The notes below the pieces were generated by a model, which saw only the letters and a program-made list of their open reading frames with translations, was not told the origin of the DNA and did no database searches. A stretch of DNA of 64,000 nucleotides from an uncultured Gemmatimonadota bacterium (GTDB lineage: Bacteria; JAAXHH01), in assembly GCA_951812955.1 (NCBI GenBank), contig OX638340.1:3200001-3264000 (forward strand), given 5' to 3'. Of the stretch, positions 1,522 to 57,706 are shown one piece after another. How positions within the stretch are numbered: position 1 is the stretch's first letter; every line of letters starts with the position of its first letter. Both the position numbers and the translations under genes were made by a program.

Positions 1522-1587
1522 GTGCGTTGCCTGTTCCTTTCGGGTTACCAGTCGCCGGCGCTTCGGACGATCCCCCCGGCCTCACGG

Positions 1588-2727: not shown

Positions 2728-2837
2728 GGCAACCTCGCAAGCCGGGAGCGTCCCCGTTTTAAGGGAATGGTCGACGGTTCGGATCGATCGGGGCCCCGGT
2801 CATCGACCGGGCCGGTGGACGCGGAAGAAGGCACGGA

Positions 2838-3539: not shown

Positions 3540-3585
3540 GTCTGTCTGGCCCCGTCAGGTTCGAGGTTTGTGAAAAGCGGGATGC

Positions 3586-3957
3586 CTACTCTTCGGATAT
3601 GATGGTGAGCTCACCGGCGTGGCAGGTGTAGCAGGTTACGGGCTGCAGGTCTTCCTTGTTCATCACGTTCTCATTGATCGCCGCTACCTGCTCGTTGAGT
3701 TGCTCTACGAGACGAATGAATTCACGGCCGATCAGTTTGGTTTCCTTTTCGTCGCTTGGATAGTCTTTCAAATTGTGACAGTAGTCGCATTTTTCCCCGA
3801 TGCCGCTGCTGACCGTTTTCATGTAGTCTCGGATTTCGCGGGTGGAGAGATCCGTCAGGACCTGGACGTTCTTGGGCGCACGCTGGGCGTCTACGGTTGC
3901 GTCGACCAGGACCGTCATAACGAAACACGCGGCAATCACCGGTATGATCCGTTTCAT
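3586..3957 (-). CDS. Small secreted dihaem c-type cytochrome (photosynthetic-reaction-centre cytochrome c subunit-like family)
   Basis: Two CxxCH haem-binding motifs (CDYCH and CYTCH). Signal peptide MKRIIPVIAACFVMTVLVDATVDA. The start was chosen at the internal Met (MKRII) of the 131-aa track ORF. Confidence 0.6.
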   Translation of the reverse strand: MKRIIPVIAACFVMTVLVDATVDAQRAPKNVQVLTDLSTREIRDYMKTVSSGIGEKCDYCHNLKDYPSDEKETKLIGREFIRLVEQLNEQVAAINENVMNKEDLQPVTCYTCHAGELTIISEE

Positions 3958-4248
3958 CGCGATTCCTTTCCTCGTGGGCATTTGGGTATTGATTCGTGTC
4001 GCCTGGACGGTTTTCGTACGACCGGCGGTTGAGGAAACTTAGATATGCGCCGCCGCGCTGTCAAGGCCTTTAAGGTCCGTAGTCCCATGGCACCGGCCCT
4101 ATTTGTATTGACAGTTCCAGTCGTTTACCGTTTCAATATTTGTTGTCCGGTCCGGTGCCGGAGATGTCTCCCGGGGTTCTTCCCCGGTGCGGTATGACGC
4201 GGCCGGACCGCCGCTTTCCGTCGTTTTAAACCCTTCCTGGTATCCGCC

Positions 4249-6534
4249 GTGATGGATTCTGTTTTAAGCGCGCTCGGTTTGATTGAGGCTTCCGAACACC
4301 TGGCGTTCAGAACCACGGTCCCGATCTGGATCATCGTCCTTTTCGCCATGGTAATGGCCGGGCTCGTGATCCTGTTTTACCGTCGCATGCCCGTGGCGAC
4401 CTCGCCGGCGTGGAAATCCCTGTTTACCGCCCTGAAGATCCTGCCCCTGCTGCTGGTCGTATTCTGTCTCATGGAACCCGTCATCGTAACGTCCGAGGTC
4501 TCGCCCCGCCGGGGTTTCGTGTTGTTGCTGTTCGACGACTCCGGGAGCATGGGGATTCAGGATGGCGCGCGGGGCGTTGCCCGCGTGGATGCAGTAAAGC
4601 GGCGTTTCGTGGATGATGGACTGCTCGAGGAACTGGCCGGCCGGTTCAGGCTGAGGCCCTACCGGTTCGCGGACCGAACCGAACGGGTCTCGGACCTGGG
4701 AGAACTGGACGGTTCCGGGATCGCGACGGACATCGCGGGAGCGCTCGGGCAGGCCGCGGGCGAGTTCAGGGACCTGCCCGTGGCCGCCGTCGTGCTCGTT
4801 ACGGACGGTGCGGACAATGCGAGCACGGGAACGGACAACCTGGCGAACGCGGCCGCGTACCTCGCATCGCGGAACACGCCGGTCCATACCGTGGGGGTCG
4901 GCCGGGAACGGATCGACCGGGATGTCGAAATACTCAAGGTAGCCGCGTCCAACCGGGTCACTGAGGGTACGATAACCGACCTTGTCGTCACCCTGCGGAG
5001 TTCGGGATACGCCGGCCGGTCGATCGACCTGAACATCAAGGAAGGCGGACGCGTGGTGCAGACGGCGCCAGTGCGTCTCGGCCGGGACGGCGAAATTCAA
5101 CGGGTTCAGGTTTTCCTGTCTCCTGAATCGCCGGGCATTCTCGAATACTCGGCCGAAGTCGCCCCCCAGAACGCGGAGACGATCTCGGAGAACAACACCC
5201 AGGCGTTCCTGCTGGACAACCGGTCGAAGACAGGACGGGTCCTGTACGTGGAAGGATATCCACGCAGGGAGTTCAAGTTTATTCGAAGGGCCCTTGAAGA
5301 AGACCCCAGGATCGATATGGTCTCGATCGTCAGGATCTCTCCGGACGGGAGGATCTACCGGCAGGGCATCCGGGACCCGAAACTGGAACTTACGGCGGGT
5401 TATCCACGGAGCCGCGCGGAGCTGTTTGCTTACGACGCCATCGTTTTCGGAGATATCGAGGCGGCCTGGTTCACATCCGAGCAGTTGCGGTTAACCGAAG
5501 CGTTCGTAAGTGATCGCGGTGGCGGCTTCCTCATGATCGGCGGACTGAACTCGTTTCGTGAAGGAGGATACGCGGGGACGCCGATCGAAGACGTGCTCCC
5601 GGTTCAACTCACCGGCGAAAACTGGGCCATGGGTATCGTCGACCACGCCTTTCTCCTCGAACCGGCCGGGGAAGGAATCGACCATCCCCTGCTCCGTTTC
5701 GGATCGACCCCGGAGGAAAACAGGGCGATCTGGAGCGGCTTGCCGGAGCTGATCGGATACAACCGGGTCGGAGGCGTAAAACCCGGCGCCTCCGTGCTGG
5801 CGATCGACCCCGGTACCGACGTGCTTGAAGGATCGAACGTGCTCCTGGCCGTTCAGCGATACGGAAGGGGGCGATCCATGGCTTTTACCGGTTTCAGCAC
5901 GTGGCGCTGGCAGATGCATCTGCCGTCAGAAGACCAGTCGCACGAGCGGTTCTGGCGACAGATGATCCGCTGGGTCGCCCTCTACGCCCCCGGGCGGGTT
6001 ACGGTCGCCACGAACAGGTCGAATTACGGAGGTCACGAGCCGGTAATCATCGAAAGCCGGCTGTTTGACCAGGGATTCGAACCGGTCGACGGCACCGAAG
6101 TATGGGCTCACGTCACGGGTCCGGCCGGCCGGTCGGAATCCGTGCCGCTCGAGTGGGCCCTGGGGAAGGGTGGCCTGTACCGGGGCGAGTATCGTCCTGA
6201 ACTGGGCGGCATGCACAAGGTCGAGGTTACCGTCCGTTCCGCAGATGGCGAGCTGCTGCGCGATCAGACCGGGTTTACCGTGGCCCCTTCGGCCACGGAG
6301 TTCACGAACGCGGGACTGCGCGCGGAGGAACTTGAAAGGCTTGCCGGGTCCACGGGCGGCACGTACCTGCCCCTGTCCGAGGCGGGACGGTTGACCGAGT
6401 TGATTCAGCCCGTCGATGATACGGCTACGTCGATCCGCGAAAGAGACCTGCGGGACACGCCTTTCCTTTTCGCGGCCATACTGCTTTTTCTGAGCGCAGA
6501 ATGGTTTTTGAGGCGCCAGAAAGGACTGTCGTGA
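4249..6534 (+). CDS. Membrane-anchored vWA domain protein (N-terminal double-TM anchor family, BatA/TIGR02226-like) with a class-I glutamine amidotransferase/DJ-1-like region and a C-terminal TM
   Basis: 761 aa. Two N-terminal TM helices (VPIWIIVLFAMVMAGLVILFY, LKILPLLLVVFCLMEPVIV). The vWA MIDAS-like start is LLLFDDSGSM, followed by VVLVTDGADN. A C-terminal hydrophobic segment (PFLFAAILLFLSAEWFL) is followed by RRQK. The stop overlaps the next start (TGATG). Confidence 0.55.
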   Translation: MMDSVLSALGLIEASEHLAFRTTVPIWIIVLFAMVMAGLVILFYRRMPVATSPAWKSLFTALKILPLLLVVFCLMEPVIVTSEVSPRRGFVLLLFDDSGSMGIQDGARGVARVDAVKRRFVDDGLLEELAGRFRLRPYRFADRTERVSDLGELDGSGIATDIAGALGQAAGEFRDLPVAAVVLVTDGADNASTGTDNLANAAAYLASRNTPVHTVGVGRERIDRDVEILKVAASNRVTEGTITDLVVTLRSSGYAGRSIDLNIKEGGRVVQTAPVRLGRDGEIQRVQVFLSPESPGILEYSAEVAPQNAETISENNTQAFLLDNRSKTGRVLYVEGYPRREFKFIRRALEEDPRIDMVSIVRISPDGRIYRQGIRDPKLELTAGYPRSRAELFAYDAIVFGDIEAAWFTSEQLRLTEAFVSDRGGGFLMIGGLNSFREGGYAGTPIEDVLPVQLTGENWAMGIVDHAFLLEPAGEGIDHPLLRFGSTPEENRAIWSGLPELIGYNRVGGVKPGASVLAIDPGTDVLEGSNVLLAVQRYGRGRSMAFTGFSTWRWQMHLPSEDQSHERFWRQMIRWVALYAPGRVTVATNRSNYGGHEPVIIESRLFDQGFEPVDGTEVWAHVTGPAGRSESVPLEWALGKGGLYRGEYRPELGGMHKVEVTVRSADGELLRDQTGFTVAPSATEFTNAGLRAEELERLAGSTGGTYLPLSEAGRLTELIQPVDDTATSIRERDLRDTPFLFAAILLFLSAEWFLRRQKGLS

Positions 6535-9584: not shown

Positions 9585-10370
9585 ATGGCCATACAATCCT
9601 CGGAAGCCATCGTGCTGAACCGGATACCGCTGGGGGATACCAGTCTCCTGGTCACGGTTTACGCCCGGGCCTTCGGCAAGGTAAAACTCGTGGCCCGCGG
9701 AGCGCGCCGCTCGAAGCGGGGGACGGCGTCTTTACTGCAACCATACCAGGTGATCACGGTATACTTCAACCACCGCACAAACCGCGAATTGCAGCAACTT
9801 TCGAAAGTCGAGGCGGGACCGTACTTCAGGCAGATCGGAGAAGACCTCACGAAGGTGGCTTATGCCAGCGCAGTTTGTGAACTGGTGAACAGGCTGGTCC
9901 TGGGCGAAGAGCCCGGCGAAGCGCTCTTCGGGCTGATCTTTCGCACGCTGGAAGCGATCGACCGGCAGTCCGCGGAATCGTGCGAAATGCTGTTCTGGCG
10001 CTTTCAGATCGAATTCGCCGATGTCTACGGCACCGGACCCGAGTTCACATCCTGCCTGGGATGCGGTGAGCGCCCGGAGGAAACGTCGGTCTGCTTCAGT
10101 CCGGCCCTGGGCGGGATTCTGTGCCGCGACTGCCAGGCGCAGGACGGCGAGGCGATGCGGATCTCCCTGGGTACCGCGCGGCTGTTGTCCCGCGTGCGCG
10201 AGTTGCCGCTGGAGAATCTGACGAGACTGAAGCCCGTGAGGACGTCGCGGCGCGAGATTCAGCGCGCAATCCGAGCCTTCTACCTGTTTCAGATGGACGA
10301 CGGACGGGAGTTGAAATCACTGAAATTCCTGGAGTCGATCGAGGAAGACAGTCGGGAGCGCCGGCAATGA
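9585..10370 (+). CDS. recO: DNA repair protein RecO
   Basis: 261 aa. N-terminal OB fold (EAIVLNRIPLGDTSLLVTVYAR) and a C-terminal Cys4 zinc motif (CLGCG...CRDC), typical of RecO. Confidence 0.85.
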   Translation: MAIQSSEAIVLNRIPLGDTSLLVTVYARAFGKVKLVARGARRSKRGTASLLQPYQVITVYFNHRTNRELQQLSKVEAGPYFRQIGEDLTKVAYASAVCELVNRLVLGEEPGEALFGLIFRTLEAIDRQSAESCEMLFWRFQIEFADVYGTGPEFTSCLGCGERPEETSVCFSPALGGILCRDCQAQDGEAMRISLGTARLLSRVRELPLENLTRLKPVRTSRREIQRAIRAFYLFQMDDGRELKSLKFLESIEEDSRERRQ

Positions 10371-11365
10371 AGAAGCACGGAACCGGGTACGACGCGGTAA
10401 CCTGGGGCGAAGGTTTTCTGCGCCTTACACCTAGGGGGCGGGAACGATTCGAGCAGGCCTCGGGGTTCGACGTTACCGTGGCCGGCGGCGCCCTGGAGAC
10501 GGCGGTCGGACTCGCAAGGCTTGGCCTCCGTACGGCCTGGCTTTCGGTCGTGGGCGACACGCCCCTGGGCATGAAGCTGGTCAACAAGGTCCGGGAGCAT
10601 GGGGTGGACACGGATCGCGTGGCCCGGTTGCCTGGAGGACGCACCGGGCTGTGTTACGCCGAGACGGGTAGCGCGCCGAGGCCGACCCGGACCTGGTACG
10701 ACATGGACGATACCGCCTTCCGTTCAACCCGATCGGGCACGGAGGACTGGCCTTCCGATCGCGAAACGGCCGTCCTGCACCTGGACCTCACGGCGCCCAT
10801 GCTCGATGCCGTCAACGCCTCCAGACTGGAAGCCGCCCTCGAATGCACCCGGGCCGCGAACAACCCGGTCAGTCTCCTGTTGGACGTACCGGGCGGGGAG
10901 CGCCTCGACGATGAAGTAGAAAAGCGGGTAGTCGATCTCGTGGATGCCGCGGAAATCCTCATGTTGACGCTACGTTCCCTCGAGACGATCTGTGGGTTCG
11001 AAGGGCCGCTGGCCACGGCGGTCGATCTGGCACGGACCCGGTTCGGCGCGAAACACACGGTGGTCGTGGATCACCGTCTCCCCGCGGCCGGCGTGGCGAC
11101 CTGGAGTGGCATCGCGGTTTCCCCCACCGGCGAGGCGTTCGAAGACCGTATAGACGGGATCAGGGTGATCGACACCGACGGCGCGCTGGGAGCCTTCGCG
11201 GCAGGTTGTCTACTCGGTTTACAGGAGGACTGCACCCGTTCCGCCTTGCGGTACGGCAGTGCCGCTGCCGCCCTGGCCTGTTCCGTACCCGGACCTTTAA
11301 ACTGGTTCACCAGGGAGGACCTGGAATTGCAGATCGAAGGAACCGGATCGAGGCTTCAGCGTTAG
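10367..11365 (+). CDS. PfkB-family carbohydrate kinase (2-dehydro-3-deoxygluconokinase KdgK-like)
   Basis: Internal start MKKHGTGYDAVTWGEGFLRL; the start overlaps the recO stop (ATGA). The ribokinase-like fold is suggested by the N-terminal GE(G/C) pattern and the C-terminal DTDGALGAF(AAG) anion-hole-like segment. The long track ORF from 10121 is an upstream extension in the same frame. Confidence 0.7.
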   Translation: MKKHGTGYDAVTWGEGFLRLTPRGRERFEQASGFDVTVAGGALETAVGLARLGLRTAWLSVVGDTPLGMKLVNKVREHGVDTDRVARLPGGRTGLCYAETGSAPRPTRTWYDMDDTAFRSTRSGTEDWPSDRETAVLHLDLTAPMLDAVNASRLEAALECTRAANNPVSLLLDVPGGERLDDEVEKRVVDLVDAAEILMLTLRSLETICGFEGPLATAVDLARTRFGAKHTVVVDHRLPAAGVATWSGIAVSPTGEAFEDRIDGIRVIDTDGALGAFAAGCLLGLQEDCTRSALRYGSAAAALACSVPGPLNWFTREDLELQIEGTGSRLQR

Positions 11366-11381
11366 ATCGATACGGATAAGT

Positions 11382-11411
11382 CCCGGCCGGGTGCCGGGTT
11401 TTTGTTTTTTT
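11382..11411 (+). terminator. Rho-independent terminator after the kinase gene
   Basis: Hairpin cccggc-cgggt-gccggg followed by tttttgttttttt. Confidence 0.55.
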
Positions 11412-11792
11412 CGTGACTCAAATCGAAGGAAAAGTGCATCCGGATTGTAGGTATTAAGATAGCGTCAATGTACCCGAGGTCATTTCGATTGCAGAAACCA
11501 TGGACGACTCGATAATCACAACAGATCATTTCGACCGTCCGCCCCGGGCTCAAACCCATAAGAGGAGGCAGGAAGATGGCAGGAAGATTCCTTATCATGC
11601 GGTCCATCACGCGTCCCAAGCCCTTCGTCACTGACGCGGGCACGCCGATCTCGTCTCCGGAGTGTTGTTGGCGCAATCCCTGACATACAAATCTGGTCAG
11701 GGTAACTGACGCACGTCCTCCGGAGCCGCGAGACCCACGTCAAGCGGTGTTTTTTTTTCTTGAGCGAACTCAACCGGAGGTAGAATCACTTC

Positions 11793-12221
11793 ATGTATAA
11801 TCCTGAATTCTGGGAAATCCGATTGGAACAGATTGATCTGGAGCAGTTTCCCAATGAAGCGAATATCTGGTACGAGACGGGGGAGGATCGGGTGCACAGG
11901 TATCAGCGCGAAGACCGGGTGGACGAACTGGCCGACTCGGTCTACGATTTCCTTTCCCAGTATCTGACCCAGAAACAGTGCGAGGTCGTGGTGCTGTATT
12001 TCATTTATCAAAAGACCCAGCAGGAGGCAGCGGATATCCTGGGCATCTCCCGCAGGGTCGTGAGCCAGCACTTGTTCGGGATTTGTCGGGAAGGCAAGCA
12101 TATAGGGGGCGCGGTCAACAAGTTGCGCAAACTGTGTGCCCGGCATGGAATCGACTTTCAACCTGCCGAGCAGACGTTCGAGACGCAGGAATTCCGCGAC
12201 CGGCTCGCCATTTCCGCCTGA
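11793..12221 (+). CDS. Small protein with a sigma-70 region-4-type HTH only (standalone sigma4 domain / putative transcription regulator)
   Basis: 142 aa. LTQKQCEVVVLYFIYQKTQQEAADILGISRRVVSQHLFG matches the sigma-70 region 4 pattern (L..RQREV..L.....S..EIA..LGIS..TV), but there is no region 2. RBS GGAGGT lies upstream. Local GC is clearly below the window average. Confidence 0.5.
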   Translation: MYNPEFWEIRLEQIDLEQFPNEANIWYETGEDRVHRYQREDRVDELADSVYDFLSQYLTQKQCEVVVLYFIYQKTQQEAADILGISRRVVSQHLFGICREGKHIGGAVNKLRKLCARHGIDFQPAEQTFETQEFRDRLAISA

Positions 12222-12258
12222 AAGACCATCCCGTACCGCTTCATGCCACTACGGAAAA

Positions 12259-12289
12259 GCCGCCGGAAGCACCATCTGGCGGCTTTTTT
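12259..12289 (+). terminator. Rho-independent terminator after the sigma4-like gene
   Basis: gccgccgg-aagcaccat-ctggcggc hairpin followed by tttttt. Confidence 0.6.
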
Positions 12290-12306
12290 AGTGAAAGAGA
12301 ATAAGC

Positions 12307-12900
12307 TTGATGGATCGTGATAGATTCTCGGACGCGATAGAGCGTATAGACGCCGCCAACGGCGCCGATCCGGAAACGGAAGAAGCAGAGGGCCGAACCT
12401 GGCCGAAGGCGTTGCTGTACGGCGTGCGGATGTCCGCCTGCCTGGAGGAACTGGCGGCAGACGCGTCGGAAGCGCTGTGCCTCGCCGTGCGTTGCCAGCA
12501 TATTCAAAGGTGGAAGATACCCCGCGAGGATTATCCCGTGGGCCGGCTCGGTTACCGGCAGTGGAGAACGGAACTGGCCGGGTACCATGCCCAGACCGCG
12601 GGCTCGATCCTGCGGGATGCCGGTTATGACGACGCACTCGTAGACCGGGTGAAGTCCCTCGTCAGAAAGGAAAGACTCAAGGCCGACCCGGAGGCGCAGA
12701 CCCTCGAGGACGTTGCCTGCCTGGTGTTTTTCCGGTACTACCTGCCCGCATTCGCGAAAAAGCACAAAGAGGAGAAACTGGTCGAAATCCTGGCAAGGAC
12801 CTGGAAGAAGATGTCGCCCGCGGGCCGGGCCGCGGCTCGAGCCATCGCCTTGACACCCGTACTGAAATCGTTGCTGGACCGTGCGATCCGGCAAGGTTAA
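12307..12900 (+). CDS. DUF4202-family hypothetical protein
   Basis: 197 aa. N-terminus DRFSDAIERIDAANGADP resembles the conserved DUF4202 start (RF..AI..IDAANAEDP); otherwise no motifs. Confidence 0.5.
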   Translation: MMDRDRFSDAIERIDAANGADPETEEAEGRTWPKALLYGVRMSACLEELAADASEALCLAVRCQHIQRWKIPREDYPVGRLGYRQWRTELAGYHAQTAGSILRDAGYDDALVDRVKSLVRKERLKADPEAQTLEDVACLVFFRYYLPAFAKKHKEEKLVEILARTWKKMSPAGRAAARAIALTPVLKSLLDRAIRQG

Positions 12901-12914
12901 CGAGCGATCTTATC

Positions 12915-14267
12915 ATGACCGAACACCGTTCTCCCAATATCGTATTCGTTTTTGGTGATCAGCACCGTTGGTGCAGTACCGGATTCGGCGGAAGCCGCCA
13001 GGTGCGCACGCCTTACATGGACCGCATGGCCCGGGAAGGCGTCGCCTTCGATCTGGCAGTCGCCAACGTTCCGGTCTGCACGCCCTGGCGGGCGGCGTTT
13101 CTTACCGGACAGTATCCGTTGACGACCGGCATGTTCATGAACGACGTGCGGCTGCCAGTGGACCGGCCGACACTGGGGACGGTCCTGCGCGCCGCGGGCT
13201 ACCGGACCGCGTACATCGGCAAATGGCATCTCGACGGCCCGTCGCGGGGTGGATTCACGCCGCCGGGCCCGCGCAGACAGGGATTCGATTTCTGGGCCGT
13301 GGGAAACTGCACCCACGACTACATGCACTCCGTGTACTACCGGGATACGGACGCGCCGCTGTACTGGGACGGGTACGACGCGGAGGCACAGACTTCCCTG
13401 GCCATCGAATACATCCAATCCGGAAAGCGGGACAGTCCCTTCGCGCTGGTCCTGTCATGGGGGCCGCCGCACAATCCCTACGAGGCGGTGCCTGCCAGAT
13501 ACCGCGATCTGTATCCGGCGGACGAGATCGAGGTGCGTCCCAACTGTACCGACCCAAACCGTGACGACATTGCGGGATACTACGCCCACATAACGGCCCT
13601 TGACGATCAACTGGCGCGCCTGGGGAATGCCCTCGATGAACAGGGGCTGATGGAGAACACGGTGTTCGTCTATACGTCGGACCACGGTGACATGCTCGGA
13701 TCACAGGGCCGGCAGCGCAAGCAGCACCCCTGGGACGAGTCCATCCGCGTCCCCTTCGTCATGCGTTGCCCGGACCAGGCGTACGGGGGGCTTCGCATCG
13801 AAACGCCGTTCAACGTGGTGGACATCATGCCGACGCTGCTCGGCCTGACCGGAATTCCCGCCCCCGGCGCCTGCGAGGGCAGGGACCACGCTCCGGCGGT
13901 GCGAGGCGACAACTTTACGGGAAACGAAGCCGCCTATATCATGAGTATCGTGCCCTTTTCGGAATACCGGGGCCAGCCCTGGCGGGGCATCCGGACCGAC
14001 GGGCATACCTACGTACGCAATCTCGACGGCCCCTGGCTGCTGTATGACAACCGGGAAGATCCCTGCCAGATGAGCAACCTGGCCGGCAGGGAAGAACATG
14101 CGGCGTTGCAGCGCCGGTTGGACGAACAACTGGAGAAAGAGATGGTCCGCCGGGGCGACGCACTGCTCCCCGCCGAGCATTACTTGGAGCGATTCGGCTA
14201 TGAAGTGAACGAAGTCGGCGCGATCCCGCACGACAATGCGGTTCGCCCGCCGGATCGACGCGCTTAG
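12915..14267 (+). CDS. Sulfatase (formylglycine-dependent arylsulfatase family)
   Basis: 450 aa. CTPWRAAFLTGQYP matches the C-x-P-x-R formylglycine motif plus the downstream LTG.YP. Also GKWHLDG and YTSDHGDMLGSQG. Confidence 0.85.
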   Translation: MTEHRSPNIVFVFGDQHRWCSTGFGGSRQVRTPYMDRMAREGVAFDLAVANVPVCTPWRAAFLTGQYPLTTGMFMNDVRLPVDRPTLGTVLRAAGYRTAYIGKWHLDGPSRGGFTPPGPRRQGFDFWAVGNCTHDYMHSVYYRDTDAPLYWDGYDAEAQTSLAIEYIQSGKRDSPFALVLSWGPPHNPYEAVPARYRDLYPADEIEVRPNCTDPNRDDIAGYYAHITALDDQLARLGNALDEQGLMENTVFVYTSDHGDMLGSQGRQRKQHPWDESIRVPFVMRCPDQAYGGLRIETPFNVVDIMPTLLGLTGIPAPGACEGRDHAPAVRGDNFTGNEAAYIMSIVPFSEYRGQPWRGIRTDGHTYVRNLDGPWLLYDNREDPCQMSNLAGREEHAALQRRLDEQLEKEMVRRGDALLPAEHYLERFGYEVNEVGAIPHDNAVRPPDRRA

Positions 14268-14309
14268 CCGGACCATGGCAACGATCCATTGAGACAAAGA
14301 GGTGACAAG

Positions 14310-17300
14310 ATGGCGGAGCAGGCCAATCTGCGCCTGATCGACCCCGTGCGGGATGCCGCGGCAATCGCCGAGATGTGGAACGAGAGCGATCTCGAGTGGC
14401 CCGGTACGTGGAACGGCGGCGTGCCCGCGGCGGCGCGGGATTACCGGGACTGGCACGAACGGAATGAATGCACTGCGGTCTATGTGTGGGCGGAGGGGGA
14501 GAAGATCGGCGGATACTGTTCCCTGGTATACGACAAGGACGATGACGAAGCCCTGTACCTCGCTCTGCTGAACGTGTCACCGCGTTTCCAGGGCCGGAGC
14601 ATCGGCCGGCGGATGCTCGTCCGCTCGGTGGAGAGGACCATCGAGGACAAGAAGACCCACCTCGATCTCGATACCTGGTCGGGGAACGTGAAGGCGATGG
14701 CGCCATACAAGCGGACGGGTTTCTTCTGGGACGCCGAAGCCTGGCCGTTGATGCGCAATTATATGCCCGCGATCCTTTCCATGCCGTGCACTCGGTACTT
14801 CTTCGACCGGCACGACTGGTACGAATCCCTGCAGAGGTCGATCGAGCAGGTGCCCGACGAGGAAGAATGGGAGGGACTTCGCGTATTCACTTACCGTTTC
14901 GTCGCTCGAGGGAACCGCTCATCGTCGGACTGTGGTGGCGCCGCGGGCGGCGCCGGCCCCGGCGGCCTGACACCACCGTCCGATGGGGCCGCGTCTGCCG
15001 AAAACCGGGAGGAATTGACGGTCCGGGTGGACCGGGAGGCCCGGCACGTGACGGCGGTGGAGACGGCGGAGTTGGCTGCGTGTGCGACGGTTGACGACAT
15101 CGAGCCGGTGCGGGGCGGCCGGACCACCCTGCGGTGGAGATTGCAAAACCGTAAGGATAAACCGGTTACTTTCTGGTTGACGGCGAAGGAGTCTGGCGAC
15201 CTGTCCATCGACTTTCACCATCGGGAGACCTTAGGCCCAGGTGAGACGGCTATTCTGGAGGCGCCGGTCAGCGTATCGGAAAAGGCCGTGGCCGTGGACA
15301 GGGATAAAACCGCACCGAGGGTCCGCACGGAGATCCGTTGGGACGATCTTCCCATCGTGCTCGCCACGGGCATTCGTCCGCGGGTCGAGATGACTTTCTC
15401 CATTGATCCCGGGGAGATCACGCTGGCGCCCGGCACACCACAGCTTGTGCGCGTAATCCTACACAGCCAACTGCCCGATGACGTCGAAGCGCAGGTCCGT
15501 CTCACCGTCTCAGACGGGCTTTCTGTGGACCGAAGCGCACACTCCGTCGCGGTTCCCGCCCGGGGGTACGGCGGATTCGAAACGGTCATCGAGGCGGACA
15601 GCCAGGGCGTTTTCGAATTGATCCTTTCGGGACGGGTGGAATGGAAGGGCGGAACGGTCGACCTGGCGGATTCGAAACACGCCGTCTTCGCGTTGGAACC
15701 GGGCGGACTGCTGTGTCACCAGGACGGTGCGGTACGGTTCGAGAACGAGATTTTCAGGGCCACCCTGGAGGCCGGGGGCGGCCAGTTGAAGATCAGGGAC
15801 CGGGCTACCGGGGGGTATCTGGGTACGGAAGGCGCGCGCCCGATTCCGCCGAAGTGGCCCAGCGAATACAGCGAATCGGACTTCAGGCTGAAAGCCGAAA
15901 GGGACGGGCACGGTGTCGTTCTCACGGCGACCTATGCACCGAAGAAAACGCCCGGCCTAATCTTCAGCCGGATCATCCGGTTGAACGCCGGCCCGGTCAT
16001 ATCCGTGGAGCACAGGTTGGAGAATACCGGATTCGACCCCCGAACCTTTCGCCTCTACCAGTTCGTGACGAACGGGGGCGCTGAGCTTTCGACACTGACG
16101 TTGCCGTTCCCGGAAGGGATGCTGAGCGTGCCGTGCGCCGACCGTCCCGCGCCGGATGACTACGACTTCAAGCACGGTGATTCATTCGCTGAGCGGTGGG
16201 GCGCATTTGAAATGGCTCACGGGACCATCGGGGTCCTCTGGCCCGGCGACCTGGACGAGATCGAATGGAACGGGTACGAATACCAGTCGGTGAGCCGGGA
16301 GACGACCTGCGCGCCGCAGTCTCGGGTATCCATTGGCCAGCTTCGTCTCTTCGTCGGTGCCGATGGATGGCGGGGCGTGCGCCGAGTCTGGCAACGGACG
16401 AACGGGCACCAGGTCGACCAGACAGTTCCACTCCCGCCGATTCTGAACGAATTCGAGGTGTCAGTCGATCCACCGATGGCCGTGGTCACAGGGGAAGAGG
16501 CCGATATCCGGTTCCGCGTGAAGCAATGGAAGACCCGGAAGGCCAGCGGAACCGTCACGTTTTTCATGCCCGACGGCTGGCGCTGCGATCCCATGTGGTT
16601 TTCTTTCTCGGATATAGACTGGCAACGACCCTTCGAAGGTTCGGTGCGACTGTCCACTTCCCAACCCCCGGGTGTGTACAACGGCCGGATGTTACTCGAA
16701 GGCGGGGAGCGCAACGTCGAGGCCGAACTGCCCCTCGTCCGGCTGACCGACGGGTCGGCCGTGGAGGTCCACGATGTGGAAACCGCTGGCCACAGGGTGT
16801 ATACCCTTCGAAACCAGCGGCTCGAGATCGATGTAGCTCCTTCCTTCCTCGGTTCCGTGAGCGCTATCCGGGACGCGGGAGGCGAATGCAATCATCTGGC
16901 TACCGCCTTTCCGAAACCCAGTGCTTTCGGCTGGAGCTACCCCTGGTATGGCGGACTGCAGCCCGAGGTATCATTGGACCGCCTGTCATGGACTGCGTCA
17001 CTCGAAGGCGAGGGTTTCACCGTGGAAACCGTCTCGTGTGCAGACGCCCTCGGCACGGAATGGACGGGCCTGCGCCAGCGTGCGCCGTTGTCGAAAGAAG
17101 CATCCCGAGGCCTTACCCTGGAACTCGATACCCTGACCCTGGGGAACAGTCCGGTTGTCAAGCTGGTATGGAGGCTGGTCAACGAGGGCGATGCCCACCG
17201 GAATCTGAGCGGAGGATGGAATCTGTTTCTGCAGCCCGACGGCGAACTGGACGACACCGTCCTGTTCTCGGCGGACTACGAACGAAAACAGAATCCCTGG

Positions 17301-17546
17301 TATTGCGACCACCGTGCCGGATCATGGGCTGCCGCCGCCAACCCGCGCACCGGGAGGACTTTCATACTGGTGTCGCCAGGGAATGAAGTCCGAATGGAGA
17401 GTTGGGGCACAGATGGGGGACACCTGAAGCTCAAGAAGAAGCACGAGGTCCCCGCCAGGGGCCGCTCGGAGATGACCGCGTATCTCGTCCTTGCCGGCTC
17501 CAGGGAAGAAGCGCGCCGCTATGCGATATTGAAGGATCTGCCCTGA
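14310..17546 (+). CDS. Large cytoplasmic protein: N-terminal GNAT N-acetyltransferase domain fused to about 900 aa of uncharacterised beta-rich sequence
   Basis: RBS AAGAGG 8 nt before the ATG at 14310. GNAT acetyl-CoA motif RFQGRSIGRRML within residues about 90-105. No signal peptide or TM. The remainder has no motif I recognise. A Gly/Ala-rich linker (SSSDCGGAAGGAGPGG) separates the two parts. Confidence 0.55.
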   Translation: MAEQANLRLIDPVRDAAAIAEMWNESDLEWPGTWNGGVPAAARDYRDWHERNECTAVYVWAEGEKIGGYCSLVYDKDDDEALYLALLNVSPRFQGRSIGRRMLVRSVERTIEDKKTHLDLDTWSGNVKAMAPYKRTGFFWDAEAWPLMRNYMPAILSMPCTRYFFDRHDWYESLQRSIEQVPDEEEWEGLRVFTYRFVARGNRSSSDCGGAAGGAGPGGLTPPSDGAASAENREELTVRVDREARHVTAVETAELAACATVDDIEPVRGGRTTLRWRLQNRKDKPVTFWLTAKESGDLSIDFHHRETLGPGETAILEAPVSVSEKAVAVDRDKTAPRVRTEIRWDDLPIVLATGIRPRVEMTFSIDPGEITLAPGTPQLVRVILHSQLPDDVEAQVRLTVSDGLSVDRSAHSVAVPARGYGGFETVIEADSQGVFELILSGRVEWKGGTVDLADSKHAVFALEPGGLLCHQDGAVRFENEIFRATLEAGGGQLKIRDRATGGYLGTEGARPIPPKWPSEYSESDFRLKAERDGHGVVLTATYAPKKTPGLIFSRIIRLNAGPVISVEHRLENTGFDPRTFRLYQFVTNGGAELSTLTLPFPEGMLSVPCADRPAPDDYDFKHGDSFAERWGAFEMAHGTIGVLWPGDLDEIEWNGYEYQSVSRETTCAPQSRVSIGQLRLFVGADGWRGVRRVWQRTNGHQVDQTVPLPPILNEFEVSVDPPMAVVTGEEADIRFRVKQWKTRKASGTVTFFMPDGWRCDPMWFSFSDIDWQRPFEGSVRLSTSQPPGVYNGRMLLEGGERNVEAELPLVRLTDGSAVEVHDVETAGHRVYTLRNQRLEIDVAPSFLGSVSAIRDAGGECNHLATAFPKPSAFGWSYPWYGGLQPEVSLDRLSWTASLEGEGFTVETVSCADALGTEWTGLRQRAPLSKEASRGLTLELDTLTLGNSPVVKLVWRLVNEGDAHRNLSGGWNLFLQPDGELDDTVLFSADYERKQNPWYCDHRAGSWAAAANPRTGRTFILVSPGNEVRMESWGTDGGHLKLKKKHEVPARGRSEMTAYLVLAGSREEARRYAILKDLP

Positions 17547-22558: not shown

Positions 22559-24553
22559 ATGGCGACCCGGAACGGTTCCGGCAACGGGAAGGATCTCCAT
22601 ACACAACTCGACTTGCTGACGCAATCTGACGACGCGGCGGGCGCCGGGTCCAGGAACGGAAACGGACCGCGCGACGGAGGTGCGCCTGAGAACGGAAACG
22701 TTGTCGAGGCAGACAGCGGTGCGCGGTCTGCCGGGGACGGTGGAACACCAGCCGCTGCAGACGCCGCCGTCTACGACGAAAGCAAGGTCAAGACCCTTTC
22801 GTCGCTGGAACACATCAGGCTGCGGACCGGCATGTACATCGGCCGGCTCGGCAGCGGCAGCGACCAGGAGGACGGCATCTACGTGCTCCTGAAGGAAGTG
22901 ATCGACAACGCCGTAGACGAGTTCATCATGGGGCACGGCCGGAAGATCGACGTGAACATCGAAGACAACCGCGTCCGCGTCCGCGACTTCGGCCGCGGGA
23001 TCCCCCTGGGCAAGGTCGTGGAATGCACCTCGATCATCAACACGGGGGCCAAGTACAACGACGAGGTATTCCAATTCAGCGTGGGGCTGAACGGCGTGGG
23101 CGCCAAGGCGGTCAACGCCCTTTCCGTCAATTTCAGGGTCGTGGCCTATCGTGACGGCCGCTTCGCGGAGGCGGTCTACGAGCGGGGGCGGCTGCTCGGC
23201 CAGAACGAGGGCGGTGCGGACGAACCGGACGGTACCTACGTGGAATTCCTGCCCGACGAGGAGATCTTCGGGGAATACGCTTACCAGACGGACTATGTCG
23301 AACGACGCATGTGGAACTACGCCTGCCTGAACAGCGGCCTCCGCATGATCTTCAACAAGAAGCGTTTCGTATCCCGGTACGGGCTGCTGGATTTCCTGAA
23401 GGCCGAGGTAGGGGACAACATCCTTTATGAACCCTCCTACCACAAGAGCCAGTACATCGAGTTCTCCTTCACCCACACCACCAACTACGGCGAGACGCTC
23501 TTCTCCTTCGTGAACGGCCAGTACACCGCGGACGGAGGGTCCCATCAGAGCGCATTCCGAGAAGGCATACTCAAGGGCGTCAACGAGTATTTCAAGAAGA
23601 GCTACGGCGGAGTGGATGTGCGGGAGTCCATCGCGGGGGCCATCGCCATCAAGCTCAAGGATCCGATTTTCGAGTCCCAGACCAAGAACAAGCTGGGCAA
23701 TACAGAGATCAGGGGCTGGCTGGTTTCGGAAATCCGCAGCGCCGTGGTGGACTTCCTCCATAAAAACCAGGAGCCCGCCCAGAAGATCCAGGACAAGATC
23801 ACCCAGAACGAGCGCCTCCGGAAAGAACTGAACGCGGTCAAGAAGGAAGCCCGGGAGGCGGCACGGCGCATCGCCATCAAGATCCCCAACTTCAAGGACT
23901 GCAAGTACCACTTCGGCCACGCCAAATACGGCGAGGATTCCTCCATCTTCATCACCGAGGGGCCGTCGGCCGCCGGTTCGATGGTTTCGGCGCGGGACCC
24001 GCTGACCCAGGCGATATTCGGGTTGAAGGGCGTGCCGCTGAACGTTTTCTCCCGCACCCGGGCGGCCATTTACAAGAATGAAGAGCTGTACAACCTCATG
24101 ATGGCCCTCGGCATCGAGGACGGGATGTCCAACCTGCGTTTCAACAAGGTAATCATCGCGACGGACGCCGACTACGACGGCTACCACATACGAAACCTCC
24201 TGATGACCTTCTTCCTGAGCTACTTCGAGGATCTGGTGCTCGCCGGCCACGTCCACATCCTGGAAACGCCGCTCTTCCGGGTCCGCAACACGAAGGAAAC
24301 CGTTTACTGCTACAGCGAGAAGGAACGCAACGCCGCCCTCGATCGTATCCGGAGCGCCGAGGTGACCCGGTTCAAGGGCCTGGGCGAGATCTCGCCGGGA
24401 GAGTTCGGCCAGTTCATCGGTTCCGACATGCGGCTCGTGAAGGTCAACGTCCGTTCCATCCACAGCATACCGGACACCCTCACCTTCTACATGGGCAAGA
24501 ACACGCCCGAGCGCAGGGATTACATCGTGGAAAACCTGCTGGACGAAGTATAG
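22559..24553 (+). CDS. Type IIA topoisomerase ATPase subunit (divergent ParE/GyrB-like; FCB-type topoisomerase IV B subunit) with about 85-aa low-complexity N-terminal extension
   Basis: LEHIRLRTGMYIGRLGSG...GIYVLLKEVIDNAVDEF (GHKL ATPase N-box), GRGIPLGKV, and a TOPRIM region (EGPSAAGS, DADYDGYHI). The minus-strand 1326-aa track ORF 22496..26476 is an antisense shadow of this gene and the next. Confidence 0.8.
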   Translation: MATRNGSGNGKDLHTQLDLLTQSDDAAGAGSRNGNGPRDGGAPENGNVVEADSGARSAGDGGTPAAADAAVYDESKVKTLSSLEHIRLRTGMYIGRLGSGSDQEDGIYVLLKEVIDNAVDEFIMGHGRKIDVNIEDNRVRVRDFGRGIPLGKVVECTSIINTGAKYNDEVFQFSVGLNGVGAKAVNALSVNFRVVAYRDGRFAEAVYERGRLLGQNEGGADEPDGTYVEFLPDEEIFGEYAYQTDYVERRMWNYACLNSGLRMIFNKKRFVSRYGLLDFLKAEVGDNILYEPSYHKSQYIEFSFTHTTNYGETLFSFVNGQYTADGGSHQSAFREGILKGVNEYFKKSYGGVDVRESIAGAIAIKLKDPIFESQTKNKLGNTEIRGWLVSEIRSAVVDFLHKNQEPAQKIQDKITQNERLRKELNAVKKEAREAARRIAIKIPNFKDCKYHFGHAKYGEDSSIFITEGPSAAGSMVSARDPLTQAIFGLKGVPLNVFSRTRAAIYKNEELYNLMMALGIEDGMSNLRFNKVIIATDADYDGYHIRNLLMTFFLSYFEDLVLAGHVHILETPLFRVRNTKETVYCYSEKERNAALDRIRSAEVTRFKGLGEISPGEFGQFIGSDMRLVKVNVRSIHSIPDTLTFYMGKNTPERRDYIVENLLDEV

Positions 24554-24559
24554 GACCCC

Positions 24560-26551
24560 ATGGCCTACGCCGATACCCTCTTCGACGACTACTATCTGAA
24601 GTACGCCTCCTATTTCATCAAGGACCGCGCAATACCGGAGATCGACGACGGCCTTAAGCCGGTACAGCGCCGCATACTCCATACCCTCTTCGAGATGGAC
24701 GACGGGAAGTACCACAAGGTCGCCAACGTGGTGGGCCAGACCATGCGGTACCATCCCCACGGGGACCAGTCGATCTTCGGGTCGCTGGTCAACCTGTCCA
24801 ACAAGGACATGTTCATCGATAAGCAGGGCAACTTCGGGTCGATCCTGACCGGCGACCCCGCCTCTGCCGCCCGGTACATCGAATGCCGCCTGACGCCGCT
24901 GGCCAAGGAGGTGCTGTACGACCCGGAAATCACCGAATTCGTGGATTCCTATGACGGGCGCAACCGGGAGCCGGTGGCTTTTCCGGCGAAGATTCCCGTG
25001 CTCCTCGCCCTGGGCGCCGAAGGCATCGCCTCGAGCATGGCGACCCGGATCCTGCCCCACAACCTCATCGAGCTCATGGAGGCCCAGATCGCCTGTCTCG
25101 GGGACGAACCTTTCGAGATCCTGCCCGATTTTCCCACGGGGGGCCTGGTAGACGCCTCGGAATACAACGACGGCAACGGGAAGGTGATGGTCCGTGCCAG
25201 CCTGGACGTGCGGGATCCCAAGCGTATCGTCATCCGCCAGTTGCCCTTCGGTTCGACCACCGAAAGTCTGATCGCTTCCATCGAGGCGGCCGCGAAGAAG
25301 AACAAGCTCAAGATCGCCGGCATCTCCGACTTCACGGCGGACGAGGTTGAAATCGAAATCCGGCTGGCGCGGGGCGTGCACTCCGAGGAAACGGTGGATG
25401 CCCTCTACGCCTTCACCGACTGCGAGTCGTCCATATCCACCAACGTGCTTCTCATCCGGGATGGCCACCCCTGCATACTGCCCGTTACCGACGTCCTGAA
25501 GCACAATACCCGCAGGCTCCTGGAGATCCTCGAGGCTGAGCTTAAAATCGAGCGCAAGCAGTTGCACGCGAAACTCCGCGCGAAGACGCTTGAGCAGCTT
25601 TTTATCAAGGAGCGGATCTACAAACGCATCGAGGAGGTACGGGAACAGGACAAGATCCATGATGCGATCCGGGAGGGATTCGAGCCCTTCGAGTCCAAGG
25701 TGAAGGACCTGACTCCCGAAGATATCGATACGTTGCTCAAGGTACCGATCCGCCGGATCTCCCTGTACGACATAAACCGCGCCAATGAGGAGATGAAGGG
25801 CATAAGGAACCGCCTGCGCGAGATCCGGGATCACCTGGGTCATCTCTCGGCCTATGCGGTCACGCTGCTCGAAGGGCTCATCGAGCGGTACAGGGAGGCC
25901 TTTCCGCGCCGAACGACCCTCGCTTCCTTCAAGCGGGTAGACGCGCGGGAAGCGGCGCAGCGGAACCTCGCACTGAAGTATGACCGGACGACCGGGTATC
26001 TCGGTTACGGTCTGAACACCGGCGACACCCTCTTCGACGTATCGCCGTACGACCGCGTGCTCGTGATCCGCAAGACAGGCGCCTACGCGCTCCACGACGA
26101 GATCGAACGGCTCTTCGTGGACAAGGGCATGCTGTACTGCGGGTTCGTCGATCCCGAGCGCGTGTTCACGATGATCTACCGGGACAGGAAAGGCCATCCC
26201 TATGTCAAACGGTGCAAGCTGGAAAAGTTCATTCTGAACCGGGGATACGAACTGGTTCCCGATGGCTGCCGGATCCTGCACCTGACCACCGACGAGGACG
26301 TCACGGCGACGGTTACCTTCAAGCCCACGCCCCGCATGCGGGTTTTCGAGGAGGTCTTCGACCTGGCCATCTTTCCGGTCAGGGGGAACCGGGCCAAGGG
26401 CATCCGCCTGGCCCCCAAGGCACTCAAGGGCGTGAAACTGTCCCGGAGACCGGAACGGGGAGATACTCCGGATCAATCGGAAGCTGCTTCAAACCCGGAG
26501 GATCCCGGCCGGTCCGCGCACCGGGCCGATCCCAAGGAAGGAAAGGACTGA
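24560..26551 (+). CDS. Type IIA topoisomerase A subunit (short ParC/GyrA-like, 663 aa)
   Basis: DGLKPVQRRILHTL, YHPHGD and AAARYIECRLT (catalytic Tyr in the AAxRYTE context). It is shorter than canonical GyrA and lacks most of the C-terminal beta-pinwheel. Confidence 0.8.
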   Translation: MAYADTLFDDYYLKYASYFIKDRAIPEIDDGLKPVQRRILHTLFEMDDGKYHKVANVVGQTMRYHPHGDQSIFGSLVNLSNKDMFIDKQGNFGSILTGDPASAARYIECRLTPLAKEVLYDPEITEFVDSYDGRNREPVAFPAKIPVLLALGAEGIASSMATRILPHNLIELMEAQIACLGDEPFEILPDFPTGGLVDASEYNDGNGKVMVRASLDVRDPKRIVIRQLPFGSTTESLIASIEAAAKKNKLKIAGISDFTADEVEIEIRLARGVHSEETVDALYAFTDCESSISTNVLLIRDGHPCILPVTDVLKHNTRRLLEILEAELKIERKQLHAKLRAKTLEQLFIKERIYKRIEEVREQDKIHDAIREGFEPFESKVKDLTPEDIDTLLKVPIRRISLYDINRANEEMKGIRNRLREIRDHLGHLSAYAVTLLEGLIERYREAFPRRTTLASFKRVDAREAAQRNLALKYDRTTGYLGYGLNTGDTLFDVSPYDRVLVIRKTGAYALHDEIERLFVDKGMLYCGFVDPERVFTMIYRDRKGHPYVKRCKLEKFILNRGYELVPDGCRILHLTTDEDVTATVTFKPTPRMRVFEEVFDLAIFPVRGNRAKGIRLAPKALKGVKLSRRPERGDTPDQSEAASNPEDPGRSAHRADPKEGKD

Positions 26552-26552
26552 C

Positions 26553-27533
26553 ATGACCCTGGAGATGCGCATCGGCCTCGGGCAGTTCAACGTGCTCACC
26601 GACGAGAAACTGGCCTACATCAAGCAACTGGGCGCCGACGATTTCCTCATGAATACGCCGAAGCTGCCCGGCGATGAGCGCTGGGAACTGACGGACCTGG
26701 TCGACCTGAAACGGCGGGCGGATGACGCCGAGTTGCGGCTCATGGCGCTGGAAAACGTGCCGGTTACATTCTACGACAGGGCCATGCTGGGCTTGCCGGG
26801 CCGCGACAGCCAGATCGAGAACATGAAGTACACCATCCGGAACATGGGCCGGGCGGGCATTCCCATCCTGGGGTATCACTGGATGCCCAGCGCCGTGTGG
26901 CGCACCCCGGATCCCGCCGTACTCCGCGGCGGGGCAACGGCCACACGCTTCGATTTCGAGGCGCATAGGGACGCGGAACTCACCCATGGCCGCGTTTTCA
27001 CGGCCGACGAGATGTGGGAGAACTACGTATACTACATGTCGAGGATCCTGCCGGTTGCCGAGGAAAGTAACGTCAAGCTCGCCGTGCATCCGGACGACCC
27101 GCCCGTACCCATGCTGGGCGGCGTGGCCCGGATCTTCAGCAGCTTCGAGGGGTTCAAGCGGGCCATGGACGCCTTTGACAGCCCGTACCATGGCCTCGAT
27201 TTCTGCATGGGCTGCTGGTCGGAGATGGGCGGCCATGACTACGTGTTAAAGGCCGTTCGGCACTTCGGCGGCCAGGGCAAAATCATCTACGTCCATTTCC
27301 GTGACGTGCAGGGAAACGTCCCCTGTTTCAACGAGTGCTTCATCAACGAGGGCAACGTCGACCCCTACGAGGTCATGAAAACCCTGAAAGACGTCGGTTT
27401 CACTGGGTTTATGATCACCGACCACGTCCCGGACTTCGTGGATGATACCGACTGGAATCACCGGGGGCGCGCCTACGCCATCGGGTACATGACGGCCATG
27501 TTGGAAATGGTCAACAAGTTGCGGCCGGCCTAG
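26553..27533 (+). CDS. uxuA: D-mannonate dehydratase (UxuA-like, xylose-isomerase-like TIM barrel)
   Basis: 326 aa, about 2 nt after the parC-like stop. MRIGLGQFNVLTDEKLAYIKQLGADDF... resembles the UxuA N-terminus in my reading; length and composition fit. Family assignment is from memory, not a search. Confidence 0.65.
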   Translation: MTLEMRIGLGQFNVLTDEKLAYIKQLGADDFLMNTPKLPGDERWELTDLVDLKRRADDAELRLMALENVPVTFYDRAMLGLPGRDSQIENMKYTIRNMGRAGIPILGYHWMPSAVWRTPDPAVLRGGATATRFDFEAHRDAELTHGRVFTADEMWENYVYYMSRILPVAEESNVKLAVHPDDPPVPMLGGVARIFSSFEGFKRAMDAFDSPYHGLDFCMGCWSEMGGHDYVLKAVRHFGGQGKIIYVHFRDVQGNVPCFNECFINEGNVDPYEVMKTLKDVGFTGFMITDHVPDFVDDTDWNHRGRAYAIGYMTAMLEMVNKLRPA

Positions 27534-30223: not shown

Positions 30224-30616
30224 CGATTCCCGCGCTGCAACTATGACAAGGGAACGGTCGAAAAGGTTGCGTTTTTTCGACCTGCGCGGTCTCACGATGC
30301 GACGTCGGCGCCGAGACGTACTGCATACACTCCGGCGGGCCTTCTTATTCACATAACCCTTCCGGTTTTCCCCGGAGCGGATGCACTTGTCCTTTCTACC
30401 CGGCCGGCGACGGGCATACGGTGCGGTACGGTGCGGAATATGCTTTTGCCTGACGGAATCACGACTGCATATTACAGGACAGGTGGTACAGGTCCCGCCT
30501 ATCGCGCAGTGACGATCGCGATACGGTATTCCGCACGACCCGTTCCGCCAGGCGCGGCGTCCGCGCGCCCGTAACCCGTGCAGTTCCCCACACTCCGCAG
30601 TACGTGGAGATCCCAC

Positions 30617-57704: not shown

Positions 57705-57706
57705 CC

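Follow-up and report, generated by a model that had tools for sequence, protein, structure and literature searches.

A GNAT acetyltransferase joined to an Ig-like and galactose-mutarotase-like β-scaffold: a bacterial and archaeal protein family that may act on carbohydrate-containing amines

The window analysed here is a stretch of 64,000 nucleotides from an uncultured Gemmatimonadota bacterium (assembly GCA_951812955.1, contig OX638340.1, positions 3,200,001 to 3,264,000), and this study concerns one gene in it, at 14310..17546, which encodes an N-terminal GNAT acetyltransferase domain joined to a long C-terminal part; the protein is referred to below as the GNAT fusion, and the gene with all its features lies on the plus strand. 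Directly upstream and on the same strand is a gene for an S1 formylglycine-type sulfatase of 450 amino acids (12915..14267; Pfam Sulfatase, E 2.5e-58, together with SGSH_C), whose motif C55-T-P-W-R59 is encoded at 13077..13091. A preliminary description of this DNA had placed two open reading frames (ORFs) here, a sulfatase with a C-x-P-x-R motif and, 42 nt after it, a GNAT gene running to 17546, and both were found at these coordinates. The large ORF spans 14289..17546 when opened at a TTG codon at 14289; we assign the start to the ATG at 14310 because a Shine-Dalgarno sequence, GAGGTG (14299..14304), was read 5 nt in front of it, because 32 homologues align from this methionine with MAEQANLRLIDP-like N-termini, and because gene calls on related contigs support it as well. 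The start chosen in the preliminary description is therefore backed by the homologue alignment, while its length of 1079 amino acids is corrected to 1078 plus the stop codon. Full-length homologues at 21-96% identity indicate that the gene is genuine, far beyond chance. The N-terminus of the GNAT fusion already lies inside the GNAT fold (β1 at residues 7-9 of an AlphaFold2 model), no transmembrane segment was predicted in this protein or in the upstream sulfatase, and no 19-residue window exceeded a Kyte-Doolittle value of 1.08 in the former or 1.23 in the latter; neither has a hydrophobic stretch fitting a transmembrane helix or a signal peptide. The hydropathy profile thus agrees with the cytoplasmic location proposed earlier for the GNAT fusion.

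The catalytic end of the protein is conventional. Its GNAT core comprises residues 1-148 (14310..14753), of which residues 21-138 match Pfam Acetyltransf_1 (PF00583) with an E of 6e-10 and 39.8 bits against a cutoff of 20.7; the same profile is matched by all 33 members of an alignment of the query with its homologues (A1). Conservation was read mainly from a second alignment (A2) of 61 diverse sequences from bacteria and archaea. The coenzyme A (CoA)-binding motif, RFQGRSIGRRML, is at residues 92-103 and contains motif A as Q94-G-R-S-I-G99-R100, with G95, G99 and R100 conserved in 72, 77 and 82% of the A2 sequences, and the motif B residues T122, W123, N126, Y133, K134, G137 and W140 are invariant in A2. 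A profile match above the curated threshold, the motif A and B residues and the alpha/beta fold together identify a member of the GNAT superfamily, as had been proposed, whose CoA-binding and catalytic-tyrosine motif is intact. The core is followed by a family-specific extension, residues 149-262 (14754..15095), made of helices at 152-173 and a small β-sheet and carrying the invariant residues W170, Y171, D183 and D241 (A2). Within it, residues 202-232 (14913..15005) form a disordered Gly/Ala/Ser/Pro-rich insertion with a predicted local distance difference test (pLDDT) score below 50, which is missing from every A1 homologue below about 55% identity and is 92% gaps in A2. The Gly/Ala stretch taken earlier for a linker does exist, but it is a lineage-specific disordered insertion of the Gemmatimonadota-like clade rather than a general connection between domains.

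The remaining residues form a scaffold of five β-domains. The AlphaFold2 model, built from A1 (pLDDT 85.4; predicted template modelling score 0.75), lays the protein out as GNAT, extension, Ig1, [Ig2-supersandwich A] and [Ig3-supersandwich B]. Ig1, an immunoglobulin (Ig)-like β-sandwich at residues ~263-345 (15096..15344), is seen in the predicted secondary structure, aligns to Ig2 in hhalign with a probability of 91.8% and is covered by weak Ig-like FixG_C matches from Pfam in 25 of the 33 A1 members. The first repeat unit begins with Ig2 at residues ~346-460 (15345..15689), which is predicted by AlphaFold2 and has HYDIN/VesB-like Ig matches, and continues with a galactose-mutarotase-like β-supersandwich A at residues ~461-705 (15690..16424), which holds an AE628xW630 motif, W644 and W687. 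The second begins with Ig3 at residues ~706-814 (16425..16751), supported by the model and by hhalign to Ig2, and ends with β-supersandwich B at residues ~815-1078 (16752..17543), in which N835, P868, W875, PWYGG at 878-882, W918, G920, T943, S947, N958 and W1006 are conserved. By profile comparison the Ig-like plus supersandwich unit is tandemly duplicated, since residues 461-705 and 815-1078 score as homologous (96.7%, E 3.5e-10), as do Ig2 (346-460) and Ig3 (712-812; 97.4%, E 1.1e-11). Pfam and NCBIfam place nothing over residues ~200-1078, the curated libraries showing weak Ig-like matches at most; a PADLOC scan of the full protein returned nothing defence-related, and sequence and profile searches of the PDB sequences returned small GNATs alone and no mutarotase. 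The earlier suggestion of a novel fold fails, both domain types being known, while the guess of a glycan-binding or hydrolase-like region fits at the level of fold.

The two largest domains have the β-supersandwich fold of the aldose 1-epimerase/galactose mutarotase type at an identity to their fold relatives of just 7-14%. These relatives are aldose 1-epimerases (3mwx, 1l7j and others) and BDI_1685 (5cd6), and the same fold serves as an accessory domain in glycoside hydrolase (GH) families GH2, GH15, GH31, GH36, GH38, GH65, GH94 and GH97, in several polysaccharide lyases (PL) and in phosphorylases. The C-terminal region is thus a combination of folds that is already known and is usual in those parts of large glycosidases that do not catalyse; its partner here is an acetyltransferase and not the catalytic domain of a glycosidase, a phosphorylase or a lyase. 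A GH174 fucanase, at first sight a lead to sulfated glycans, was set aside as one of many equal fold-level matches. Conservation is unevenly spread: columns conserved at 90% or more make up 15.5% of the GNAT core and 13.2% of the extension and 1-6% of the β-domains (A2). The conserved C-terminal positions are mostly Trp, Gly and Pro, with W630, P868, G882 and G920 invariant, and only E628, N835, T943, S947 and N958 are polar residues conserved at 90% or more in the C-terminal ~850 residues. No His is conserved at 80% or more across residues 233-1078. The mutarotase catalytic set, the His/His/Asp/Glu of GalM from L. lactis, has no conserved counterparts in A2 when sequence conservation is the measure. 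The query has no match to PF01263 (Aldose_epim) at E <= 1, this family is not among the 20 matched at E <= 0.1 across the 33 A1 members, no sequence match to any GH or PL family was obtained, and neither a recognisable glycoside hydrolase catalytic domain nor a conserved carboxylate pair is present. No second catalytic constellation was found in the protein, and from its single conserved acid and lack of conserved His the C-terminal part looks non-catalytic. We accordingly regard it as very unlikely that one or both mutarotase-like domains act as an epimerase, hydrolase or lyase on the substrate of the GNAT, either ahead of its acetylation or following it. Such a bifunctional enzyme would draw on a fold that includes true enzymes (the aldose 1-epimerases), on characterised glycosidases, GH174 endo-1,3-fucanases for example, among the fold matches, on the 97% conservation of E628 in its AExW motif and on the precedent of the fungal glycosidase-GNAT fusion RmNag (PMC4680927); yet that glutamate is alone in ~850 residues that match no family of carbohydrate enzymes and are conserved three-fold less than the GNAT domain.

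The joined architecture defines a family that is spread across both prokaryotic domains. A word-indexed search returned 51 homologues of 1040-1110 amino acids, and an exhaustive phmmer search with residues 461-1078 (618 residues) returned 403 clusters at 50% identity, 109 of them below 1e-30, most being ~1030-1100 residues long with the module match at a constant offset. A scan of species-representative genomes gave at least 572 candidates confirmed by tblastn, some weak members of which may be GNAT-only, the search patterns being sited in the GNAT domain. The locus analyses below cover the best 80 of these candidates, 17 from a close clade (≥70% identity) and 63 distant ones, which are near-full-length copies, a few of them truncated at the end of a contig or interrupted by a frameshift. 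Frame breaks or stops across the match (~10001..13200) were seen in the close-clade chromosome or contig assemblies L021, L022, L023 and L027, and may be assembly indels or real pseudogenes. The bacterial sources are metagenome-assembled genomes labelled Gemmatimonadota or Latescibacterota, Zixibacteria, Chloroflexota (many of them Anaerolineae), Actinomycetota, Armatimonadota and Acetothermia, and the archaeal ones are Bathyarchaeia, Nitrososphaerota, Thermoplasmata, Theionarchaea and Asgard archaea. Several matches to the C-terminal module, of ~690-730 residues, have no GNAT. In the two of these viewed in their genomic context, a separate gene for 346-404 residues lies directly upstream (overlapping by 4 nt in L094) and aligns to query residues 15-400, that is, to GNAT, extension and Ig1, and a stand-alone module was rejected, both cases being halves of split genes. 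The matches at odd offsets are N-terminally truncated or still carry the GNAT, and none has a different catalytic domain. GNAT and scaffold are thus obligately coupled, and where the gene is split its halves stay adjacent. One split version, L092 (GCA_019217005.1, JAHBNG010000004.1, 1..16400), is surrounded by seven separate GNAT-type genes, an APH-type kinase, a GFA-domain gene and ABC ATPase/exporter genes; the additional GNAT genes near some homologues, L092 included, have no paralogy to the family at E < 1e-3. Members are annotated just as "GNAT family N-acetyltransferase", no curated model covers the C-terminal ~850 residues, and a literature search for a GNAT with a mutarotase-like architecture returned nothing relevant. 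On this evidence the architecture is undescribed, although its component folds are known and its chemistry is probably that of an ordinary GNAT.

Genomic context was then compared across the family. Seven distant contexts read gene by gene have varied neighbours, among them ABC exporters, a histone-deacetylase-like gene, a GH95 gene, a PEP-utilising protein with an amidohydrolase, a class-V aminotransferase with a MurJ-like flippase, and five EcKL kinases. A Pfam census of 113 immediate neighbours spans 132 families, and neither this census nor an all-vs-all clustering of 1126 neighbour ORFs yielded a partner conserved across the family. Recurrence is limited to ABC ATPases, which are generic, and to Aminotran_5 and MurJ-like genes, which are specific to subclades, and some neighbours are linked to carbohydrates (GH95, GH20, alpha-amylase, CBM9, LacI/SBP and GFO/IDH/MocA). 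In an Anaerolineales subclade (L039, L040, L049, L050, L052, L053, L063, L065 and L071) the family gene is consistently followed by an aminotransferase and/or a flippase, the class-V aminotransferase being counted at 8 loci and the MurJ/Polysacc_synt_3-like flippase at 11, a pattern that may tie the gene to envelope glycan synthesis, though in this lineage alone. The exporters and kinases raise the question of a xenobiotic or antibiotic enzyme, in which the GNAT would N-acetylate an amino-sugar small molecule of the aminoglycoside kind, the supersandwiches would bind its sugar rings, and exporters or kinases would act alongside. The closest GNATs include AAC(6') enzymes, streptothricin and phosphinothricin acetyltransferases and the tabtoxin resistance protein; heterodimeric ABC exporters follow immediately downstream in L003, L042, L045, L047 and L051, and occur no more than ~3 kb away in L044 and L038; and P0051, the most divergent member (L011, GCA_016839845.1), is directly preceded by a tandem array of five EcKL/APH-like kinase paralogues (699..6387), to which the GNAT-rich island of L092 adds its APH gene and exporters. 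These contexts are nevertheless limited to subclades, an ABC ATPase within 10 kb (24 of 63 loci) is not clearly above expectation for a class of genes that ranks with the commonest, known resistance GNATs are scaffold-free proteins of 150-200 residues, and the locus in the window has neither an exporter nor a kinase partner. We consider a resistance function quite unlikely.

The sulfatase next door was weighed separately. The preliminary description had read the pair by analogy with eukaryotic heparan degradation, the GNAT fusion re-acetylating an amino sugar after desulfation, and had named co-occurrence of the two genes across genomes as a check. By tblastn, a sulfatase stands beside the GNAT fusion in 16 of the 17 close-clade loci and in 1 of the 63 distant ones (L057, Anaerolineae), the seventeenth close locus, L090, keeping a remnant of 99 residues (9645..9917). 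The close clade shares ~25 kb of synteny that includes this adjacency, in the order enolase, DivIC, RecO, PfkB, a sigma-r4-like gene, DUF4202, sulfatase and GNAT fusion, followed by a methionine aminopeptidase (MetAP) gene on the opposite strand, an HMGL-like gene, an M20 peptidase, an acyl-CoA dehydrogenase and a type IIA topoisomerase pair; because the whole region is syntenic, the adjacency in this clade carries little information. No sulfatase occurs in the seven distant contexts inspected gene by gene, nor does sulfatase feature in the 25 Pfam families listed as most frequent in the 113 immediate neighbours. Sulfatase linkage is therefore a trait of one clade and not of the GNAT-fusion family, and the functional link to the sulfatase does not hold family-wide; an adjacency that is not conserved is the very outcome that the preliminary description had named as refuting its idea. 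The heparan analogy moreover requires an N-sulfatase that exposes an amine, whereas among solved structures those nearest to this sulfatase are O-sulfatases of carbohydrates (YidJ-like 2qzu, the chondroitin sulfate/dermatan sulfate 4-O-endosulfatase 6j66 and the N-acetylglucosamine-6-O-sulfatase 5g2v), which would expose a hydroxyl, N- versus O-specificity not being readable from sequence alone. The SGSH_C match is shared with a second, unrelated sulfatase in the window and is not specific to N-sulfatases. Nor do the window's genes that had suggested catabolism of sulfated acidic glycans form a compact locus, being scattered among housekeeping genes (enolase, RecO, MetAP, the type IIA topoisomerase pair and acyl-CoA dehydrogenase). 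As a family-level function, re-acetylation coupled to a sulfatase is largely refuted. A clade-local counterpart of lysosomal heparan degradation, acting on a desulfated glycosaminoglycan-like substrate, could still appeal to the 42-nt gap on a shared strand, in which no terminator-like site was found and across which sulfatase and GNAT fusion are probably co-transcribed in the source genome, to the SGSH_C-type C-terminal subdomain, to the near-constant pairing in the close clade and to L057; against the 62 distant loci that lack the adjacency, the shared synteny and the O-sulfatase relatives, we hold it to be highly improbable.

Taken with the scaffold and the coupling, these comparisons lead us to propose, tentatively and at somewhat less than even confidence, that the GNAT fusion is an N-acetyltransferase that depends on acetyl-CoA and binds, through its scaffold, an amine containing carbohydrate. 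The N-terminal GNAT and the family-specific ~110-residue extension, the most conserved parts, would make up the catalytic unit, and the remaining ~800 residues would be a non-catalytic scaffold of the glycosidase type on which the acceptor is bound and positioned. The likeliest acceptor would be an amine that contains carbohydrate, for example a de-N-acetylated oligosaccharide of amino sugars or a glycoconjugate, imported to or made in the cytoplasm, and acetylation would fall on nitrogen rather than oxygen, giving an N-acetylated product ready for catabolism or salvage, as with bacterial glucosaminide N-acetyltransferases. Our confidence is set at this level because the substrate can be told neither from the GNAT core nor from the neighbourhoods, and three observations weigh against the proposal: the commonest immediate neighbours are ABC_tran (exporters) and Aminotran_5 (8 of 113 each) with no carbohydrate-active neighbour conserved, the C-terminal domains hold no clearly conserved polar sugar-binding constellation in A2, and the YidC P1 domain and the NDH subunit PnsB2, for which a sugar role is unproven, have the mutarotase-like fold as well.

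A different acceptor is conceivable, namely a protein lysine or N-terminus, the array of Ig-like domains and supersandwiches then serving for protein-protein interaction or oligomerisation, by a logic comparable to that of large bacterial protein acetyltransferases of the Pat/PatZ type. In PDB profile and structure searches NAA30, NAA50, Ard1 and RimI match the GNAT domain as strongly as small-molecule GNATs do, the gene is spread across both prokaryotic domains with no conserved metabolic partner, and a full-length Foldseek search against the PDB returns Ig/macroglobulin strings of protein-binding scaffolds (hydin, complement, alpha-2-macroglobulin), at TM-scores of only ~0.1-0.16, which we set aside as a generic β-sandwich likeness. 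Set against this, the fold of the two largest domains is, among solved structures, overwhelmingly linked to carbohydrate enzymes, and the searches brought up nothing resembling the regulatory domains of known large protein acetyltransferases; on balance a protein or peptide acetyltransferase seems unlikely. The acetyltransferase Pat carries its GNAT at the C-terminus, after a large NDP-forming domain of the acyl-CoA-synthetase-like kind; no domain of this Pat/PatZ kind was detected in the GNAT fusion by Pfam, NCBIfam or PDB profile searches. The proposed carbohydrate-directed enzyme also admits a bolder version, which we consider rather doubtful though less so than protein acetylation: a GNAT would have replaced the catalytic domain on a glycosidase-type β-scaffold, giving a cytoplasmic glycan N-acetyltransferase that is processive or directed at polymers, or else an acetyltransferase that senses glycans, as the founding member of a pan-prokaryotic family.

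Among known systems, HGSNAT, the acetyltransferase of lysosomal heparan degradation, is a multi-pass transmembrane protein unrelated to GNATs that acts across the lysosomal membrane. Its chemistry would be like that proposed here, in that a glucosamine amine exposed during the degradation of a glycan becomes N-acetylated; unlike it, the GNAT fusion is soluble, cytoplasmic and GNAT-based as predicted, and the partner N-sulfatase step is unsupported. The bacterial glucosaminide N-acetyltransferase re-acetylates glucosamine (GlcN) residues before hydrolysis and is a precedent for the role proposed for the GNAT fusion, as is the fungal fusion RmNag. The glucosamine/glucosaminide N-acetyltransferase of C. 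acetobutylicum (PDB 5kf1) and the GlcN region of RmNag (PDB 4zm6) are tandem GNATs of ~300 residues, whereas the GNAT fusion has a single GNAT, a unique 110-residue extension and 800 residues of Ig-like domains and supersandwiches. RmNag, a fungal fusion of a GH3 beta-N-acetylglucosaminidase and a GNAT (PMC4680927), possesses a true GH3 catalytic region, and the GNAT fusion has no glycosidase catalytic domain. No sequence-level relationship of 5kf1 or RmNag to the GNAT fusion was detected, and their structural scores are no better than those of GNATs of other specificities. About 850 of the 1078 residues of the GNAT fusion are uncovered by curated models, and its cross-domain family is frequent among uncultured lineages of the sediment and subsurface (Anaerolineae, Bathyarchaeia, Asgard archaea and others) whose carbon metabolism is inferred almost wholly from annotation. 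If the scaffold binds glycans, the substrate specificity of a GNAT would here be built in a new way, and the enzyme might supply a step missing from the salvage of amino sugars or de-N-acetylated glycans; in either case a tempting annotation as a sulfatase-acetyltransferase pathway is removed as unsupported.

Several further features of the window deserve mention. A gene for a 142-residue protein with only a sigma-70 region-4 helix-turn-helix and a gene for a DUF4202 protein (11793..12900) are co-directional with the sulfatase and lie just upstream of it, with gaps of 85 and 14 nt within the group and an order that is kept in the close clade. A strong terminator-like hairpin at 11382..11398 stands ahead of the group, and the sigma-r4-like, DUF4202, sulfatase and GNAT genes may form one transcription unit. 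The second S1 sulfatase (30578..32122) is likewise without a signal peptide or transmembrane segment, its start probably being the internal Met of MSGGRLNVLFIMTDQ, and both S1 sulfatases of the window appear, from their sequences, to be cytoplasmic; no FGE gene and no gene for an anSME radical-SAM sulfatase-maturating enzyme was present among the window ORFs scanned. At 22559..27533 a GyrB-like gene (664 amino acids) and a short GyrA/ParC-like gene (663 amino acids) are followed after 1 nt by a UxuA-like gene for a mannonate dehydratase/xylose-isomerase-like TIM-barrel protein, an odd pairing whose topoisomerase-UxuA order is the same in L001 and L002. Between the UxuA-like gene and the second sulfatase, on the minus strand (27530..30616), a gene encodes a 1028-residue protein with a CBM9 carbohydrate-binding module and DUF5916, and a giant CBM9-containing protein is also encoded near the Latescibacteria homologue in L005. 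Finally, LarC-like (Ni_insertion) and LarB-like (AIRC) genes on the minus strand (54676..58459) adjoin a double ABC ATPase gene, and their likeness to Lar proteins suggests nickel-pincer cofactor biosynthesis.

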